Shown here: one piece after another, positions 10,023 to 15,713 of the stretch
How positions within the stretch are numbered: the stretch's first letter is position 1
Layout: each line of letters begins with the position of its first letter
Virus record (IMG/VR): IMGVR_UViG_3300046007_013272
Source: an uncultured virus (IMG/VR IMGVR_UViG_3300046007_013272)
Taxonomy: Duplodnaviria > Heunggongvirae > Uroviricota > Caudoviricetes
Reading direction: 5' to 3' (one strand)
Length of the DNA stretch: 64,000 bases
Made by a program: the position numbers and the translations under genes
Notes under the pieces: generated by a model
What the model saw: the letters and a program-made list of their open reading frames with translations, nothing else
What the model was told of the DNA's origin: nothing
Databases searched by the model: none

Positions 10023-10523
10023 ATGGCTAATTACGGAGTACAACCCGTTCGAGACCGCTTACAAAGGATAACACCTGAGCAAGCAGCCGAATATGTTCCT
10101 TTGAAGGAAGATTTTACGGGTACAACTGTTGATCAATGTCCTTTTTTTACCCTCACCTCTGGAAGTGATGGTTGGGAAAATGTGACTTATTATACTTCTA
10201 GAAAGCGAAATATTTTTGCTGATAGAGGAGATGGAAAGCATTGGGTTTATGTTTTGCAAAACGATTCAATGCCCGGTCTTTATAAGATTGGTTACACTCA
10301 TTTAATGCCTGAGGAAAGAGCACATCAAGTTTCTTCTTCAACAGGTGTTGCTACTCCATTTAAAGTTGTTTTTGCTTTTAAATGTCACGATGGAATGATG
10401 CTTGAAAAAGAAATACATCGTTATTTAGATATTTATCGCGTAAACAACAATAGAGAATTCTTCCAGGTTGAACTAGAAGAAGCTATCAACACTATTGAAT
10501 TTTTAGGAAAAACTTATAAATAA
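10023..10523 (+). CDS. T5orf172/GIY-YIG domain protein
   Basis: WVYVLQNDSMPGLYKIGYT...PEERA...TGVATPF...LEKEIH...NREFF. Confidence 0.9.
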   Translation: MANYGVQPVRDRLQRITPEQAAEYVPLKEDFTGTTVDQCPFFTLTSGSDGWENVTYYTSRKRNIFADRGDGKHWVYVLQNDSMPGLYKIGYTHLMPEERAHQVSSSTGVATPFKVVFAFKCHDGMMLEKEIHRYLDIYRVNNNREFFQVELEEAINTIEFLGKTYK

Positions 10524-10600: not shown

Positions 10601-11099
10601 GGAAATGATGGAAACGAGGGGTAGGATATTCTGTGATATGGATGGGGTGCTAACGGATTTCGATGGGAGATTCGAGTATTTCACCGGTTTATCTCCTAAG
10701 GAATACGAGGACACTAAGGGAACAGAAGCGTTTTGGAATGCTATTACTCCCATAGGAAAAGATTTTTGGTCTAAAATGCCTTGGACCCCCGGTGGTCGTA
10801 GACTTTGGAACTTTATTAAAGACCATGAACCTAAACTTTTAACTGCTCCTTCACAAGATGTTTCTTCTAGAATAGGAAAAAATGAATGGGTTATAAACCA
10901 TTTATCTCCTATGCCTAAAGTTATTTTTAAAGGTGCTAAATACAAACATCAAGCTTTAAAATACCCCACTGATATTCTTATTGACGATAGATACGACAAT
11001 ATTACTCGTTGGAGGTCTGCTGGTGGAATTGGTTTACATCATTCTACAAATGGTGATCCTTCTGAAGTTATAGAAAAATTAAAAGAATTGGGTTATTAG
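10593..11099 (+). CDS. HAD-family 5'(3')-deoxyribonucleotidase-like protein
   Basis: IFCDMDGVLTDF, LLTAP, GKNEW, ILIDD and W..AGGIG motifs. Confidence 0.85.
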   Translation: MKEEMMETRGRIFCDMDGVLTDFDGRFEYFTGLSPKEYEDTKGTEAFWNAITPIGKDFWSKMPWTPGGRRLWNFIKDHEPKLLTAPSQDVSSRIGKNEWVINHLSPMPKVIFKGAKYKHQALKYPTDILIDDRYDNITRWRSAGGIGLHHSTNGDPSEVIEKLKELGY

Positions 11100-11100
11100 A

Positions 11101-11132
11101 TTTGGAGATATAGATATTTATTTATATCTTTA
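11101..11132 (+). promoter_or_regulatory. promoter of the tRNA array
   Basis: TTTG-N20-TATCTTTA ending 9 nt before tRNA-Leu. Confidence 0.7.
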
Positions 11133-11141
11133 CAAAAGAAT

Positions 11142-11227
11142 GCCGCCTTGGTGAAATAGGTAGACACAAGGGACTTAAAATCCCTCGGACAGCAATGTTC
11201 GTACCGGTTCGATTCCGGTAGGCGGTA
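11142..11227 (+). tRNA. tRNA-Leu(TAA)
   Basis: Cloverleaf; anticodon loop CTTAAAA; long variable arm; GTTCGA T-loop. Confidence 0.95.
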
Positions 11228-11286
11228 CAAAATATATCTAAGTGTGTAAGCTTTGAGATTTTATATTTTTGTTGTACATTTTGTAC

Positions 11287-11748
11287 ATGAATAGGATCTT
11301 TAAAAGTGGCACTACACATAAACCCATACAACTTATCCCGTATCTTTTAAATTATATAAAAGAATACCCAGAAACTAAGATTTATGTGGGTACTGATTCT
11401 CAAAATCGGGGCCCTGAAACAGTTTATGTTACTGCTATTGTTTTAAGATATAGAAGTCGAGGTTGTCATGTTCTATATCATAAAACTAAAGTCCCTATTA
11501 TCAGAGATTTTTGGGGTCGGTTGTGGAGAGAGACAGAAATGTCAATTGAAACCGCATTATTTGTTATAGAAAACAGTCCTCTAAAAGTCGAGTCAATCGA
11601 TTTAGATTTTAATGAAGACGAATATAAGTTATCTAACAAACTTGTAGCCGCATCTAAAGGTTGGGTTCACGCAGCCGGATTTAAATCTACTACAAAACCT
11701 TCACTCCAGATCGCAACAAGAGCAGCCGATCACGTTATAAGAACTTAA
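11287..11748 (+). CDS. ribonuclease H-like YkuK/DUF458 family protein
   Basis: IYVGTDSQ...YVTAIV...RLWRETEMS...IDLDFN...KP...AADH. Confidence 0.85.
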   Translation: MNRIFKSGTTHKPIQLIPYLLNYIKEYPETKIYVGTDSQNRGPETVYVTAIVLRYRSRGCHVLYHKTKVPIIRDFWGRLWRETEMSIETALFVIENSPLKVESIDLDFNEDEYKLSNKLVAASKGWVHAAGFKSTTKPSLQIATRAADHVIRT

Positions 11749-11756
11749 AGAAAAAA

Positions 11757-11788
11757 TTTGGCGAATATTTATATTATTCGTATCTTTA
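11757..11788 (+). promoter_or_regulatory. promoter upstream of the main tRNA/ncRNA block
   Basis: TTTG-N20-TATCTTTA. Confidence 0.7.
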
Positions 11789-11835
11789 CAAAAGAGTTAG
11801 AAATAACAAACGTTATTTGACATGTGGGTAAACAA

Positions 11836-11915
11836 GCCGAGATGGTGGAATGGTAGACACGCTGGTCTTAGGAACCAGTGCCTAGTGTGTGCGGGTTCGA
11901 GTCCCGCTCTCGGTA
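11836..11915 (+). tRNA. tRNA-Leu(TAG)
   Basis: Cloverleaf; anticodon loop CTTAGGA. Confidence 0.95.
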
Positions 11916-11917
11916 CA

Positions 11918-12118
11918 AATGAAAAATTCCTTACAGAAGACAGATTAGCACTGTTGAAAGGAACCTTGGCTTCAAATGGATCGCAACCATAACGAAGGTT
12001 AAATGCCCCAAGGTACTCTGTGATGGGCCCTGCTCTATGGTGCACTCATAACAGGTGAGCAGTAAACTATGCTCAGTCAAACCCACAACCACGGTGAGCG
12101 TGGAAGGAGTTTTTCATT
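11918..12118 (+). ncRNA. putative structured ncRNA (~200 nt), family unknown
   Basis: Closed by AATGAAAAATTCCTT/AAGGAGTTTTTCATT with several internal stems; fills the space between two tRNAs. Confidence 0.6.
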
Positions 12119-12125
12119 TACTATT

Positions 12126-12199
12126 GGTCCCGTAGCTCAGCTGGATAGAGCATCGCACTTCTAATGCGACGGTCATTGGTTCGAATCCAATCGGGATCA
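12126..12199 (+). tRNA. tRNA-Arg(TCT)
   Basis: Cloverleaf; loop CTTCTAA. Confidence 0.95.
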
Positions 12200-12207
12200 C
12201 ATAAAAT

Positions 12208-12281
12208 TCTCCCTTAGCTCAGTTGGTTAGAGCGAATGACTGTTAATCATTAGGTCCCTGGTTCGAGCCCAGGAGGGAGAG
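12208..12281 (+). tRNA. tRNA-Asn(GTT)
   Basis: Cloverleaf; loop CTGTTAA. Confidence 0.95.
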
Positions 12282-12283
12282 CT

Positions 12284-12578
12284 AAAGTAATGTGGCTGAA
12301 CAAAAGGGTTGAGAGCTCTTAAGGCACTGGCTGAACTGCTGAAAAGTAGGAATGTTGGGTCGAACAGACATGTGAGGTAAAACCACTCAAACTGCGGGGT
12401 AGAATGTACAACCCTTCAGCCTCTGAGGTCCCGCGAAGTTATTCAGACTGATCTCTGCAGCGGGTGCCGGTAGTCAATCCGGCTAGTTATTACAGCAGAA
12501 TTAGCTACTCTGTTGGATTATGGGTGAAAGGGGGCATGTCCAGGACGTGTGGGTAGTCAGGATTCCCACCATTACTTT
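12284..12578 (+). ncRNA. putative structured ncRNA (~295 nt), family unknown
   Basis: Ends pair (AAAGTAATG/CATTACTTT); GC-rich interior with hairpins; no + strand ORF in the track. Confidence 0.6.
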
Positions 12579-12583
12579 TTTAT

Positions 12584-12672
12584 AGTCAGGTGGCGGAATG
12601 GTAGACGCACCGTTGTACTTTATGTCTGCGGAGAAAGGAACATTCGTACAGGTTCGAATCCTGTCCTGACTA
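12584..12672 (+). tRNA. tRNA-like gene with aberrant anticodon arm (undetermined), copy 1
   Basis: AGTCAGG/CCTGACT acceptor, D arm and T arm intact; anticodon arm lacks a 5-bp stem plus 7-nt loop. Confidence 0.7.
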
Positions 12673-12673
12673 C

Positions 12674-12776
12674 AAAGGTGTTAACCACCCGGCCTACTAG
12701 AGTGAAGTATCGAGTACGATATACTTGAATAGAATAGGTAGCTACCATAAGAACGCTTTAAATTCGTTAACACTTT
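12674..12776 (+). ncRNA. hairpin RNA with CCATAAGAAC loop, copy 1
   Basis: AAAGGTGTTAAC/GTTAACACTTT outer stem; AGC-TACCATAAGAAC-GCT inner hairpin. Confidence 0.55.
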
Positions 12777-12783
12777 CCTATAT

Positions 12784-12855
12784 CGCGGGATAGAGCAGAG
12801 GTAGCTCGTTGGGCTCATAACCCAAAGGCCGAAGGTTCGATTCCTTCTCCCGCTA
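12784..12855 (+). tRNA. tRNA-fMet(CAT), initiator
   Basis: C1:T72 mismatch, GGG/CCC in the anticodon stem, loop CTCATAA. Confidence 0.92.
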
Positions 12856-12858
12856 CAA

Positions 12859-13043
12859 TGAGTAAGAGATACTCACAGTCTTTGGTCTAAGACTTAAACA
12901 ATAGACCCGCAGAATGTCTACGGCGCGAGTGGGACATCGTGGGAATAAAGGAGAACGACACAACTCCTCCCAGTAGTGTTGACTGTTTTCAAGGAGTAAG
13001 ATCCTCAGGGTTTTTGAAAGGAAAAACCGGGAATATCTACTCA
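12859..13043 (+). ncRNA. putative structured ncRNA (~185 nt), family unknown
   Basis: TGAGT..AGAT/ATCTACTCA closing stem; ACAGTC/GACTGT; TAGAC/GTCTA; GGAG/CTCC; GGTTTT/AAAACC. Confidence 0.5.
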
Positions 13044-13067
13044 CTGTAATCTCAGGTGGGGAAACAT

Positions 13068-13142
13068 AGTCAGGTGGTGTAATGGTAACTACCGCTCGCG
13101 TAAATTCGGGGGCAGATACAGGTTCAAGTCCTGTCCTGACTA
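13068..13142 (+). tRNA. tRNA-like gene with aberrant anticodon arm (undetermined), copy 2
   Basis: Same AGTCAGG/CCTGACT acceptor and ACAGG/CCTGT T stem as copy 1; irregular anticodon arm. Confidence 0.7.
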
Positions 13143-13143
13143 C

Positions 13144-13195
13144 AAAGAGTACTTATCACGCTACCCATAAGAACAGCGTCCCCGGATAAGTCTTT
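13144..13195 (+). ncRNA. hairpin RNA with CCATAAGAAC loop, copy 2
   Basis: AAAGA(GT)ACTTATC/GATAAGTCTTT outer stem; CGCT-ACCCATAAGAAC-AGCG inner hairpin. Confidence 0.55.
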
Positions 13196-13199
13196 TGTG

Positions 13200-13317
13200 A
13201 GAGAGATAGTGAAGCTGTTAGTTGGTGATGGTGCTAAAAGGATGAAAAAGGGTTTTAGAGTATTCCGAGGCCAAGCAAGTCACCAATCAGTAACCCTGAA
13301 AGACCCGAAGTCTCTCT
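13200..13317 (+). ncRNA. putative structured ncRNA (~120 nt)
   Basis: AGAGAGAT/GTCTCTCT ends; GTTAGTTGGTGAT/GTCACCAATCAGTAAC inner stem. Confidence 0.5.
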
Positions 13318-13322
13318 TTTAA

Positions 13323-13405
13323 TGGAAGGTGGGTGAGTGGTTAAAACCGGCAGACTGTAAATCTGCTCCCTTACGGGTACGGCGGTTCGAATCCGTCCCT
13401 TCCAA
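13323..13405 (+). tRNA. tRNA-Tyr(GTA)
   Basis: Cloverleaf; loop CTGTAAA; long variable arm. Confidence 0.95.
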
Positions 13406-13409
13406 CTAC

Positions 13410-13540
13410 AGAAACAGAGGAAGCGTAGAACAACTAGCCGAGAGAGCGGCGACGCAAGGGTACACACTTAGTAGCTCTCTTATTGGTGTGTTAAGCATTT
13501 GTTAGATTCCTGATAAAGTTGTTCCTGTTTCTTTTTTTTT
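13410..13540 (+). ncRNA. putative structured RNA ending in a U-tract
   Basis: AGAAACAG/CTGTTTCT and GAACAACT/AGTTGTTC stems, AGAGAGC/GCTCTCT, then a T run. Confidence 0.45.
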
Positions 13541-13551
13541 ATACTAAAATT

Positions 13552-14301
13552 ATGCTACAACTATTAAAAGCTTTTAATTTTACACTTCCTATTATTAAAG
13601 AAGGAAAATGGGGGAATGTAGAAATTGTTAAAAATAATAATACTTATATTCTTTTAGTAGATGGAGAACAATGGCTTCTCTATAAGGAAAATAATCACGA
13701 TACCGCTTATCAAGTTTTTTCACATTATGATTTAGCTTATGGACATGTAGTTTGTACTGGAATGGGGTTTGGGATTCGTGAAAATTGGTTGATTAACAAT
13801 CCTAAAGTAACTAAGATTACAGTTATTGAACGTAGCCAAGATCTTATAAATTATCATAAAGAAGTAAATTCACCATTTATTACTAGTCCTAAAGTAGAAA
13901 TATTCAATGGGAATGCTAGTGAGTACAAAGGTAAATGTGATGTTCTATTATTAGACCATTATGAACTTGAATCTTGGGAAGAAATGTTACAGGATGTTTA
14001 TAAGTGTCAACAAAATATTGATTGTGATTTGATGTGGTTTTGGCCTCTAGAAAAAATTATTACAATCTATAGAAAGTATTATACAGATAATATTGCTCCA
14101 TATAATCTTCTTACAAAACATCAAACATATCAGTTAATTAAAGAAAATTATAAGTTAGATAAATTACCTAATATAGATGAATCTACCTTAAATTTATATA
14201 TTATGATGTATTTTTCAAGTTTATTTACAAACACAGAATGGGTACTTAATACATACTTTACTGATAGAGTAGTTAATCATAACATATATTGTATGATTTA
14301 A
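13552..14301 (+). CDS. class I SAM-dependent methyltransferase / spermidine-synthase-like fold protein
   Basis: VVCTGMGFGI, ITVIE, IFNGNA and DVLLLDH motifs. Confidence 0.7.
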   Translation: MLQLLKAFNFTLPIIKEGKWGNVEIVKNNNTYILLVDGEQWLLYKENNHDTAYQVFSHYDLAYGHVVCTGMGFGIRENWLINNPKVTKITVIERSQDLINYHKEVNSPFITSPKVEIFNGNASEYKGKCDVLLLDHYELESWEEMLQDVYKCQQNIDCDLMWFWPLEKIITIYRKYYTDNIAPYNLLTKHQTYQLIKENYKLDKLPNIDESTLNLYIMMYFSSLFTNTEWVLNTYFTDRVVNHNIYCMI

Positions 14302-14308
14302 TATATTT

Positions 14309-14381
<73 letters not shown>

Positions 14382-14387
14382 CTTAAT

Positions 14388-14458
14388 TACCCTCTCGTCT
14401 AATGGCAGGACAAGTGGTTTTGGTCCACTTAATTGGGGTTCGAGTCCCTGGGGGGTAA
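14388..14458 (+). tRNA. tRNA-Gln(TTG)
   Basis: Cloverleaf; loop TTTTGGT. Confidence 0.92.
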
Positions 14459-14464
14459 CTATAT

Positions 14465-14541
14465 TGGAGAATATCCCCTCAAGCTTATACCTTGTAGAAA
14501 GGGTAAGTGGTTACATGTGGGTTCGAGTCCCATTTCTCCAA
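14465..14541 (+). tRNA. atypical D-armless tRNA-like gene (apparent anticodon TAT)
   Basis: TGGAGAA/TTCTCCA acceptor and canonical T arm; CAAG-CTTATAC-CTTG hairpin; no D arm at the normal position. Confidence 0.6.
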
Positions 14542-14545
14542 CAAT

Positions 14546-14619
14546 GCGCCTTTAGCTCAGTCGGTTAGAGCAGGAGACTCATAATTTCTTGGTCGGGGGT
14601 TCGAGCCCCTCAAGGCGCA
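14546..14619 (+). tRNA. tRNA-Met/Ile2(CAT), elongator type
   Basis: Fully paired acceptor stem; loop CTCATAA. Confidence 0.88.
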
Positions 14620-14658
14620 CTTGATTTTTATCGCAATTTCCCATATATTTATGGGAAT

Positions 14659-14745
14659 GGAGGTTTGGCAGAGCGGTCGAATGCGGCAGTCTTGAAAACT
14701 GTTTTAGGTGAGAGCCTAACCGGGGTTCGAATCCCTGAGCCTCCG
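14659..14745 (+). tRNA. tRNA-Ser(TGA)
   Basis: Cloverleaf; loop CTTGAAA; long variable arm; G discriminator. Confidence 0.95.
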
Positions 14746-14772
14746 CTAACTTAATTAATTAAATTCAAAATC

Positions 14773-14937
14773 ATGAAAAACGCAATTTTTGCATTTCTTT
14801 TCGCAGCTGTAGCTGTATCTTGTGCTCAATCTACTGAAGAAGTAGTAGTTGAAGAAGTAGTAGTAGATACTACTGCTACTGTAGACTCTACCTCACTTGA
14901 AGTAGAAGCTGAAGGCGAAGAAGCAGCAGCTGAATAA
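14773..14937 (+). CDS. small acidic lipoprotein (54 aa, MKNAIFAFLFAAVAVSCAQSTEEVVVEE...)
   Basis: Read by eye (below the ORF-track cutoff); signal peptide II with VAVS-C lipobox and E/V-rich tail. Confidence 0.75.
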   Translation: MKNAIFAFLFAAVAVSCAQSTEEVVVEEVVVDTTATVDSTSLEVEAEGEEAAAE

Positions 14938-15044
14938 TACTGAGTCTAGCCTCTAAATCCTCTTCCCAGAGAGGTTGACTTCGGAGAAAAGATTCAAAAG
15001 GGGAGTACGTGAACCGATAGCGTCTTAGAAAAAACCTCCCATAC

Positions 15045-15117
15045 GCTTCCTTAGCTCAGCTGGTAGAGCCACTGATTTGTAATCAGTAGGTCGTTGGTTC
15101 GAATCCGACAGGAAGCT
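15045..15117 (+). tRNA. tRNA-Thr(TGT)
   Basis: Cloverleaf; loop TTTGTAA. Confidence 0.95.
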
Positions 15118-15191
15118 CATCTCGCCTTCCATCTGAAAGGAGTAAGTGGAGAAGGAGTAAAGAAGCCGTTACTTTGTAGCGGTTTCGGTAT

Positions 15192-15264
15192 GCGAAAGTA
15201 GCTCAGTTGGTAGAGCATAACCTTGCCAAGGTTAGGGTCGCCGGTTCGAATCCGGTTTTTCGCT
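15192..15264 (+). tRNA. tRNA-Gly(GCC)
   Basis: Cloverleaf; loop TTGCCAA. Confidence 0.95.
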
Positions 15265-15311
15265 CAAAATTATCCACATTCCCTTTTTTAAAAAGCTATA
15301 TATTTATATCC

Positions 15312-15713
15312 ATGGATATGGATAAGATATTTAGTCTCTTTGACTCTGAATCGGGGCAAGAGTTACTAACTCAAAGTTCCCCCAAGAGATTGGAGGACAC
15401 CGCCTTATTCCATGTTGGGATGTTCCGCAAATTAATTCTTAGTGAAAATACTTATCATAAAGAATTACACAAGGAATTCCCTTTTATGAAAGGCATTGAT
15501 ATTCTTAGTGAAGCTGTTGTCTTTCATAGAGCATATTTTTATATAGACAAAGTTAAATTTGAAGAAGAATTAGGTAAAGAAGCCTTAAAATTTTTCAATG
15601 GAATAGAACTAAAAACTTGTTTTAAATTATCAATACACTTTTTTGAAGAAAAAGAAGCATATGAAAAATGTGCTCATCTAAAAAAACTCCTAGATTTCTG
15701 TGAAGAATCATAA
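15312..15713 (+). CDS. hypothetical protein (C-terminal E.YEKCA.L, UVR-like motif)
   Basis: Start trimmed to lie past tRNA-Gly; preceded by ATATTTAT. Confidence 0.7.
   Translation: MDMDKIFSLFDSESGQELLTQSSPKRLEDTALFHVGMFRKLILSENTYHKELHKEFPFMKGIDILSEAVVFHRAYFYIDKVKFEEELGKEALKFFNGIELKTCFKLSIHFFEEKEAYEKCAHLKKLLDFCEES

Follow-up and report, generated by a model that had tools for sequence, protein, structure and literature searches.

A structured, manA-like RNA among the tRNA genes of lake and gut phages

Introduction

What fills the long spacer behind the tRNA-Asn gene in the transfer RNA (tRNA) array of an uncultured lake phage? The DNA analyzed here (IMG/VR record IMGVR_UViG_3300046007_013272; 64,000 nucleotides, in the following the window) comes from a tailed phage, with open reading frames (ORFs) that match baseplate wedge, terminase, portal and major head families, and carries 14 tRNA genes at 11142-15265, all on the + strand (ARAGORN). 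The spacer between tRNA-Asn (12208-12282) and a tRNA-like gene (12584-12673) is occupied by an element of about 295 nt (12284-12578, + strand). A first-pass annotation, made from the letters of the window alone, had proposed that this element is a large, multi-domain non-coding RNA that could pair with or mimic the tRNA-like RNAs nearby. We find that it is a distinct, enlarged relative of the manA RNA (RF01745), uncatalogued in Rfam 15. Taken as a whole, the reading that we favor, and on balance consider probable, is that of a stand-alone structured RNA gene that is cotranscribed with tRNAs and possibly self-assembles.

The element occurs once in the window. The search for ORFs of at least 40 amino acids inside 12284-12548 found none, and a coding role was rejected on this ground. 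At gathering scores, Rfam 15 matches only tRNAs. The G+C content of the tRNA array is about 47%, compared with about 33% in the flanking coding DNA. All sampled words of the window are also contained in a second IMG/VR record, G001 (170,105 bp, rated complete), and near-identical DNA is present in lake-water metagenome runs.

Homologs in phages of lakes and gut

A blastn search of the element against 50,697 phage records returned only three matches, of at most 40 nt and with E-values of 1 or more. Homologs were collected by scanning IMG/VR with exact patterns from four stretches of the element and by screening the loci with an nhmmer profile. The element is present in 53 of the 96 loci from these scans, including all 33 obtained with a pattern from the loop of its last hairpin (P9), and these yielded 24 distinct sequences; the 15-mer ACTGATCTCTGCAGC matched 48 loci, only five of which contain the element. 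A distant member, L072, led by blastn to the genomes of 15 Lak megaphages and to two records of an uncultured 735-kb phage, with 69-77% identity over 30-91% of the query. In prokaryotes (one genome per species, 185,579 species), 11 pattern matches included one full-length member, L111; six of the other ten match the profile no further than the surroundings of the pattern, and the remaining four do not match it. The contig L111, 15.8 kb long and binned as Muribaculaceae, has tRNA genes adjoining the element and is probably of phage origin. The element is thus conserved across phages of lakes and of the animal and human gut (Lak megaphages) as well as in the 735-kb phage. A protein search with the ORF downstream of the element found only a fragment of the same phage.

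Two members of the collection have peculiarities of their own. About 220 nt downstream of the element, L111 carries a suppressor-type tRNA (958-1032, + strand; ARAGORN 'tRNA-Stop', anticodon tta). In the variant L094 (1-167, + strand), a longer, different insert takes the place of helix P8, with P7, P9 and the joining strand retained.

A conserved fold

Given the agreement among these homologs, we regard it as practically certain that the element is a structured RNA. The same architecture was obtained when RNAalifold was applied to five sequences and then to the close and the distant group separately (MAFFT/RNAalifold alignments). From 5' to 3', the consensus comprises the terminal helix P1; P2, whose internal loop is asymmetric; P3, capped by a GNRA loop; P4 and P4b, which enclose P5-P8; a purine-rich strand; and P9. 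In sum, the fold consists of nine helices closed by P1, plus a 4-bp pseudoknot, and is supported by compensatory changes.

We assessed this fold in an alignment of 25 homologs (A3), for which 66 pairs in 14 helices were counted. Standard pairs are formed in 91.6% of the cells, compared with 67.2% after shuffling (0 of 500 shuffles reach the observed value) and 36.5-46.5% with slid partners. Both sides have changed in 54 of the 66 pairs, compared with 41.2 for shuffled and 22-27 for slid partners, and the covariation score is 0.621 (0.206 shuffled, 0.077-0.168 slid). The many G-U pairs show that the RNA corresponds to the + strand. Pairing is poorest in the outer part of P5 (64.6%), which holds only in the close group, followed by P4 (helix 6; 79.9%), in which nevertheless 6 of 6 pairs are compensatory.

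The large non-coding RNA that the first-pass annotation had seen at 12284-12578 is therefore real, with strong backing from the homologs, and its multi-domain nature is borne out by the nine helices and the pseudoknot, all with covariation. Every string named there is present at its position, and five of the six proposed pairings recur in the consensus. The terminal helix AAAGTAATG/CATTACTTT corresponds to P1 and is supported by compensatory changes; GACATG(T)/(G)CATGTC (P4), CAGCAGA/TCTGTTG (12493-12499/12509-12515, in P8) and the hairpin GCCGG-TAGTCAAT-CCGGC (P7) all covary, and the hairpin GTGGG-TAGTCAGGATT-CCCAC (P9) is likewise supported. One proposal fails: the strings AAGGGTTG (12304-12311) and CAACCCTT (12409-12416) are present, and their long-range pairing is not supported. 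We rejected it because AGGG pairs locally with CUCU in P2 and ACCC closes the P5 hairpin; the CAACCCTT segment is, moreover, deleted in L004-type relatives.

Since P1 is out of register in the alignment, it was scored sequence by sequence. In 18 of 23 homologs, a terminal duplex of 9-16 bp lies flush with the core, built from unrelated sequences, and its mean free energy is -8.7 kcal/mol with the strand's own partner and -3.2 kcal/mol with foreign partners. In P2, helices 1 and 2 are 97.1% and 93.0% paired, with 7 of 8 pairs compensatory. The pseudoknot joins the P2 loop to the interior of P6 and forms 4 of 4 Watson-Crick pairs in 24 of 24 sequences, in seven combinations: GAGA/UCUC, AAGA/UCUU, GAAG/CUUC, GCCA/UGGC, GAUA/UAUC, GACA/UGUC and AGCA/UGCU. 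The switch between the last two occurs between closely related Lak phages. Similarly, 89.3% of the cells pair in P3 (helix 5), where compensatory change affects 6 of 7 pairs and the loop is of the GNRA type in 24 of 24 sequences; in P8, the values are 100% for helix 12 and 94.2% for helix 13, and compensatory change is seen in 12 of 12 pairs. The hairpin loops have fared differently: the P7 loop follows the consensus UA-NNN-AAU, with its TAGTCA part not conserved (variants include UAGAUAAU and UAACCAUU), and the first nine loop bases of P9, UAGUCAGGA, are identical in all 25 homologs. A scan of all other column pairs for tertiary pairing gave only two-pair stacks with little variety, none of them credible, and the search for a pairing partner of the variable P7 loop bases was negative. 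The parts of the RNA are listed in Table 1.

Table 1. Parts of the manA-like RNA in the window; helix numbers are those of alignment A3.
Feature	Position	Strand	Remarks
P1 5' strand AAAGUAAUG (DNA AAAGTAATG)	12284-12292	+	1 nt after tRNA-Asn; pairs with 12570-12578
P2	12295-12325	+	GCU...GGC outer pairs, internal loop GAACAAA/UAA, inner stem AAGGG/CUCUU, 7-nt loop UUGAGAG
Pseudoknot strand X, GAGA	12311-12314	+	In P2 loop; helix 3, 100% paired
P3 arm	12327-12359	+	GNRA-capped hairpin CUGCU-GAAA-AGUAG at 12336-12349; outer pairs weak in the window
P4 5' strand GACAUGU	12367-12373	+	Long-range, pairs with 12534-12540; closes the central domain
P4b 5' strand CCA	12383-12385	+	Pairs with UGG 12521-12523; helix 7, 98.6% paired, little variation
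P5 hairpin arm	12386-12427	+	Helices 8 and 9; apical loop with self-complementary UGUACA, 12405-12410
P6 (CCCGC/GCGGG)	12430-12464	+	Helix 10, 5/5 pairs compensatory, 91.0% paired
Pseudoknot strand Y, UCUC	12452-12455	+	In P6 interior; partner of 12311-12314
P7 hairpin GCCGG-UAGUCAAU-CCGGC	12466-12483	+	Helix 11, 100% paired, 3 pairs compensatory
P8	12484-12520	+	Base UAGUU/GAUUA, upper stem CAGCAGA/UCUGUUG, 9-nt loop AUUAGCUAC
Palindrome UAGCUA in P8 loop	12502-12507	+	
P4b 3' strand UGG	12521-12523	+	Alignment A3; helix 7
Purine-rich joining strand GUGAAAGGGG	12524-12533	+	Conserved in alignment A3
P4 3' strand GCAUGUC	12534-12540	+	Alignment A3; helix 6
P9 hairpin GUGGG-UAGUCAGGAUU-CCCAC	12549-12569	+	manA-type terminal hairpin; helix 14, 100% paired
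P1 3' strand CAUUACUUU (DNA CATTACTTT)	12570-12578	+	Followed by UUUUA and the tRNA-like gene at 12584

Relationship to manA

Very probably, the element is homologous to manA. At relaxed thresholds, manA is the only Rfam family that matches over the element; the match spans 12263-12579 and is full-length (model positions 1-192), with 27.8 bits and E-values of 8.5e-5 to 2.5e-4. The model also matches nine of the 18 diverged homolog loci scanned (25.1-33.4 bits) and gives only 14.4 bits on the G001 element. As positive controls, the canonical manA RNAs of the phages P-SSM2 and P-SSM7 score 181.6 and 175.6 bits, and the frame that they share with the element is visible. The first-pass annotation had named a match to a known family as evidence against its own reading; this holds by half, since manA matches below threshold, and not for RNase P RNA, transfer-messenger RNA (tmRNA) and group I/II introns, for which Rfam gives no match within 12284-12578 at E <= 10 and, in the case of tmRNA, ARAGORN no call in the window.

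The likeness lies at the two ends of the RNA. At the 5' end, both have the terminal P1 stem, a GUG linker and a P2 with an UGAAYAA/UAAGG internal loop: the covariance model alignment sets UAAUG-UG-GC-UGAACAAA...UAAGGC of the element on the P1, GUG and P2 positions of manA, and in A3 the corresponding features (GUG-RC-UGAAYAA...UAAGG; UGAAUAA/UAAGG in the internal loop) are conserved and covary. At the 3' end, both have a last hairpin with an 11-nt loop, UAnnCAGnAAU (here UA..CAGGAAU), that directly abuts the 3' strand of P1; GUGGG-UAGUCAGGAUU-CCCAC-CAUUAC of the element aligns to GugGG-UAuacAguAAU-CCcaC-CuCCC of the model, so that P9 falls on the last manA hairpin. In canonical marine manA, the last loop reads UAUACAGGAAU in the published alignment rows (PMC2864571, supplement file 5, part 126). 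Both RNAs are, furthermore, phage-borne and have a GNRA-capped hairpin.

The differences lie mainly in the center. The element measures about 295 nt and canonical manA about 190 nt, and the model alignment needs central gaps of 122 and 45 nt. Canonical manA has a central P3 junction (GUGGUG, GNRA and UUACCA hairpins, then a P7/P8 arm), of which only the GNRA hairpin is recognizable in the element; here, the long-range P4 encloses P5-P8 instead. In addition, the element has the covarying pseudoknot from the P2 loop, a second UA...AAU hairpin and two self-complementary loops, and its range extends beyond marine cyanophages to phages of fresh water and megaphages of the gut.

A further difference concerns the position in the genome. 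According to Weinberg et al. (2010; PMC2864571), manA is found mostly in 5' untranslated regions (UTRs), and Rfam classes it as cis-regulatory; the canonical copies of P-SSM2 and P-SSM7 precede ORFs, namely purL and a carbamoyltransferase gene. The element, by contrast, does not stand before a protein-coding gene, being located between tRNA-Asn and the tRNA-like gene. However, the 5' UTR position is not universal for manA, because at least one canonical copy, that of the cyanophage S-CREM1 (10215-10429, 100.6 bits), lies likewise flush between two tRNA genes, tRNA-Leu (10132-10213) and tRNA-Asn (10429-10501) (PMC9964418, Table 4, Table S4). Our literature search found no description of the enlarged form of manA or of its setting in tRNA arrays.

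Genomic setting and expression

The setting within tRNA genes is shared by most homologs. A tRNA or tmRNA directly adjoins the element on the same strand in 21 of 27 representative loci, and two more have a tmRNA upstream (Rfam). In the five closest relatives, the preceding tRNA ends 8-11 nt before the core, a stretch that is the P1 strand itself, and the next tRNA begins 11-16 nt past P9. Different phages have different pairs of neighbors (Asn/Ile-like, Gly/Asn, Thr/Gly, Gly/Ala, Thr/Ser, tRNA-like/tmRNA), with tRNA-Thr and tRNA-Met in Lak phages, which indicates that the element serves no particular downstream gene.

The tmRNA genes and a group I intron found in relatives occur beside the element, not inside it. 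Phage tmRNA genes directly adjoin it at L093:498-876 (- strand, 94.5 bits), L088:499-876 (- strand, 88.5 bits), L090:53-435 (+ strand, 63.8 bits) and L089:1-425 (+ strand, 37.6 bits, cut by the contig end). The group I intron match (L069:1062-1273, + strand; 54.6 bits, gathering score 50) comes right after a tRNA match at 985-1056 and shares its array with a distant family member.

Given this arrangement, the RNA would be transcribed as part of a tRNA precursor and freed by the processing of the flanking tRNAs, with RNase P acting at the 5' end of the downstream tRNA and 3'-end processing at the upstream tRNA; P1 would then protect both ends of the RNA. This proposal draws on the established roles of RNase P and of the tRNA 3'-end enzymes, and we consider it likely that the RNA is indeed released separately from the tRNA transcript. 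Promoter-like sites occur in the tRNA array at chance level (12 compared with 11.6 expected). The tRNA cluster of phage T4 encodes small, stable non-tRNA RNAs (species 1 and 2) that are cut from a common precursor; judged by their description, these resemble the element in being stable non-tRNA RNAs inside a phage tRNA cluster.

Contigs from RNA libraries cover 12292-12385 and 12356-12434, with one mismatch each, in one of four runs, and the other three (X20, X21 and X22) give no cover on 12313-12540. Bins of tRNAs in the RNA runs are swamped by tRNAs of other organisms. One contig of run X19 (depth 20.7) jumps from 12464, where P6 ends on its 3' side, to 12292, the last base of the P1 5' strand ('goes back 173'). 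It may stem from faulty assembly, from a relative with rearranged DNA or from a permuted molecule.

Self-complementary loops and possible self-assembly

Two loops of the central domain are self-complementary. The 9-nt loop of P8 contains a 6-nt palindrome in 22 of 25 sequences, or in 5 of 8 distinct loops; it takes the forms UAGCUA, UGAUCA, UAAUUA and UCAUGA and would be expected in 6.3% of random 9-mers of the same composition. The P5 apex likewise stays self-complementary in most homologs, as UGCGCA, GGCC or GCGC instead of the UGUACA of the window.

For canonical manA, a cryo-electron microscopy preprint (10.64898/2026.07.01.735769) reports RNA-only octamers, decamers and a 60-subunit icosahedral cage in vitro, built of pentamers via kissing loops and a GNRA-receptor contact. 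Because the loops of the element remain self-complementary while their letters change, as a two-fold RNA-RNA contact predicts, we judge self-assembly to be the most likely mechanism. Like canonical manA, the enlarged RNA may thus assemble with copies of itself, with the P8 (UAGCUA) and P5 (UGUACA) loops acting as two-fold contacts. Argued from sequence and by analogy, the formation of such a homo-oligomer is a tentative proposal, to which we give slightly less than even odds. The setting in tRNA arrays points to a role of such a particle in translation or tRNA biology.

There is precedent for RNA particles of this kind. According to Kretsch et al. (2025; PMC12286853), GOLLD and ROOL are ornate phage RNAs that are "often near tRNA islands" and form RNA-only nanocages; they resemble the element in being phage-encoded near tRNA islands and give a precedent for protein-free, homo-oligomeric cages. 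They differ from it in that there is no sequence or model match; the GOLLD and ROOL models of Rfam have none at E <= 10 in 10800-15600 or 11900-13560. ROOL RNAs are about 580 nt long. GOLLD, given as more than 800 nt (PMC12286853), is also much longer than the element.

It appears possible, though more doubtful than oligomerization as such, that the enlarged manA-like RNAs constitute a third class after GOLLD and ROOL, i.e. phage RNAs that derive from tRNA operons and build closed, protein-free particles through kissing P8 and P5 loops. Such a class would be common to lake, marine and Lak phages and would have a general, cage-based function in the takeover of tRNAs or translation. In a bolder form, we suggest that the invariant UAGUCAGGA loop may serve to dock a cargo or partner shared among all these hosts.

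Alternative explanations

Several observations weigh against a tRNA-cotranscribed, possibly self-assembling manA relative. As regards the fold, the energy of the single sequence on the + strand (-89.5 kcal/mol, z = -0.57) is equaled by 52 of 200 shuffles, and the - strand does no better (z = -0.22), so that the case rests on the comparison of homologs. The covariation counts, in turn, are inflated by the relatedness of the sequences; the covariation at the pseudoknot is compatible with an intermolecular contact as much as with an intramolecular one; and P1 is weak in 5 of 23 sequences (L089, L090, L069, L072 and L095). The homolog set is also biased, as 33 IMG/VR loci were retrieved with the P9-loop pattern itself; the invariance of this loop therefore rests mainly on the Lak and LR756501 loci, found by blastn, and on loci from two other patterns. 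As regards manA, its gathering score of 55.2 bits is reached neither by the element nor by any homolog among the 18 loci scanned, the Lak and LR756501 loci have no manA match at E <= 0.01, and the central topology differs from the canonical one. As regards expression, the RNA-library contigs are no proof of transcription and reveal no RNA ends. As regards assembly, finally, the P8 loop lacks a 6-nt palindrome in 3 of 25 sequences (3 of 8 distinct loops), the L058-type group has no palindrome at the P5 apex, and the reported oligomers are those of canonical manA.

The main rival to self-assembly is a monomeric RNA that acts in trans, or a ribonucleoprotein with a phage or host protein, e.g. in translation or tRNA processing, in which the palindromic loops would be recognition sites. 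It shares all structural and contextual evidence with the oligomer, and the invariant UAGUCAGGA loop and the conserved GUGAAARGGG strand resemble binding surfaces; the three sequences without P8 palindrome, and the restriction of the reported assembly to canonical manA, also speak in its favor. Yet four different 6-nt palindromes at one loop position are hard to square with a fixed partner, and the nearest known family is reported to form protein-free RNA oligomers (10.64898/2026.07.01.735769). We therefore regard a monomer or ribonucleoprotein as unlikely, though deserving of attention, and retain self-assembly as the preferred mechanism.

Less probable still is a cis-acting element of the tRNA operon, be it a riboswitch-like sensor or a scaffold for processing or anti-termination that controls the yield of the downstream tRNAs. 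This idea has the history of manA behind it, which was first proposed as riboswitch-like and, as described above, is filed as cis-regulatory, lies mostly in 5' UTRs and precedes purL and a carbamoyltransferase gene in P-SSM2 and P-SSM7; the element, too, is always on the same strand as what follows. However, the downstream neighbor differs between loci (tRNA-Ile-like, Asn, Gly, Ala, Ser, Arg, Thr, Met or tmRNA), so that a shared target of regulation is missing; the 3' end is not overlapped by any terminator or expression platform, and the tRNA array has terminator-like sites at chance level (4 compared with 3.2 expected); and P1 seals the element off from both flanks. For these reasons, we find a cis-acting role improbable and the stand-alone RNA gene the better account.

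The pairing or mimicry proposed in the first-pass annotation starts from a genuine coincidence. The 8-mer TAGTCAGG of the P9 loop is indeed repeated at the 5' end of each tRNA-like gene (12583 and 13067) and has five matches in the window, counting both strands, compared with 1.25 expected; one of 100 shuffles reaches five. Genes with the AGTCAGG...CCTGACT acceptor stem are found in only two of the five whole phage records searched; records rated 99% and 100% complete lack them even though the loop is retained there. Since the loop is invariant even in such complete genomes, the proposed interaction through TAGTCAGG is not supported; since canonical manA carries the near-identical loop UAUACAGGAAU, most of the 8-mer is a family trait; and since the two tRNA-like genes are paralogs, their match counts as one event. 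A pairing of the P9 loop UAGUCAGG with the CCUGACUA 3' acceptor strands of the tRNA-like RNAs (12584-12673, 13068-13143), or a mimicry of their 5' ends, is therefore very improbable despite the excess of the 8-mer, the invariance of the loop and an AGTCAGG-type tRNA-like gene about 0.8 kb from the element in the close relative G002, given also that Lak phages and canonical manA retain UA..CAGGAAU without such neighbors, that the 25 identical loops include those of Lak phages found by blastn and not by motif, that CCUGACU is already paired inside the acceptor stem, and that the related P7 loop is not conserved as TAGTCA.

Implications for phage RNAs

For 16 years, manA has been classed as a cis-regulatory riboswitch candidate, and the enlarged form never stands ahead of a protein-coding gene. 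That this form is sealed by a terminal stem between tRNA genes argues that the manA superfamily consists of stand-alone phage RNAs made together with tRNAs. If it self-assembles, as is reported for canonical manA, phages would have taken repeatedly to RNA-only particles from tRNA islands, GOLLD and ROOL being the other cases, and these particles would span from lake phages to the largest gut phages. As the family is absent from Rfam 15, spacers of this kind are currently annotated as empty.

Other features of the tRNA array

The two paralogous tRNA-like genes (12584-12673 and 13068-13143, + strand) have a common AGUCAGG/CCUGACU acceptor stem and T arm and abnormal anticodon arms. ARAGORN calls the first Ile(tat) of 90 nt and the second '???' with the 4-base anticodon aaat, and their Rfam tRNA scores are 43.0 and 37.3 bits. 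They have a counterpart in the related phage G002 (C1:46130-46205) that receives no ARAGORN call. Between tRNA-Gln and tRNA-Met lies a further tRNA match (14465-14541, + strand; 28.9 bits, threshold 29), which ARAGORN does not call.

Upstream of the element, the spacer between tRNA-Leu and tRNA-Arg contains a near-threshold match to the freshwater-1 RNA (RF02979; 12019-12081, + strand; 68.3 bits, gathering score 72, E 3e-15), which is uncovered in all four RNA-library runs compared; the relative L074 (1187-1249) scores 68.6 bits. Downstream, the long, G+C-rich spacers at 12674-12783, 12857-13067, 13144-13322 and 13407-13520 (+ strand) have no Rfam match and may be further uncatalogued RNAs. 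RNA-library contigs with few differences extend over 12647-12854 (two runs) and, in pieces, over 12855-13087 (four of four runs).

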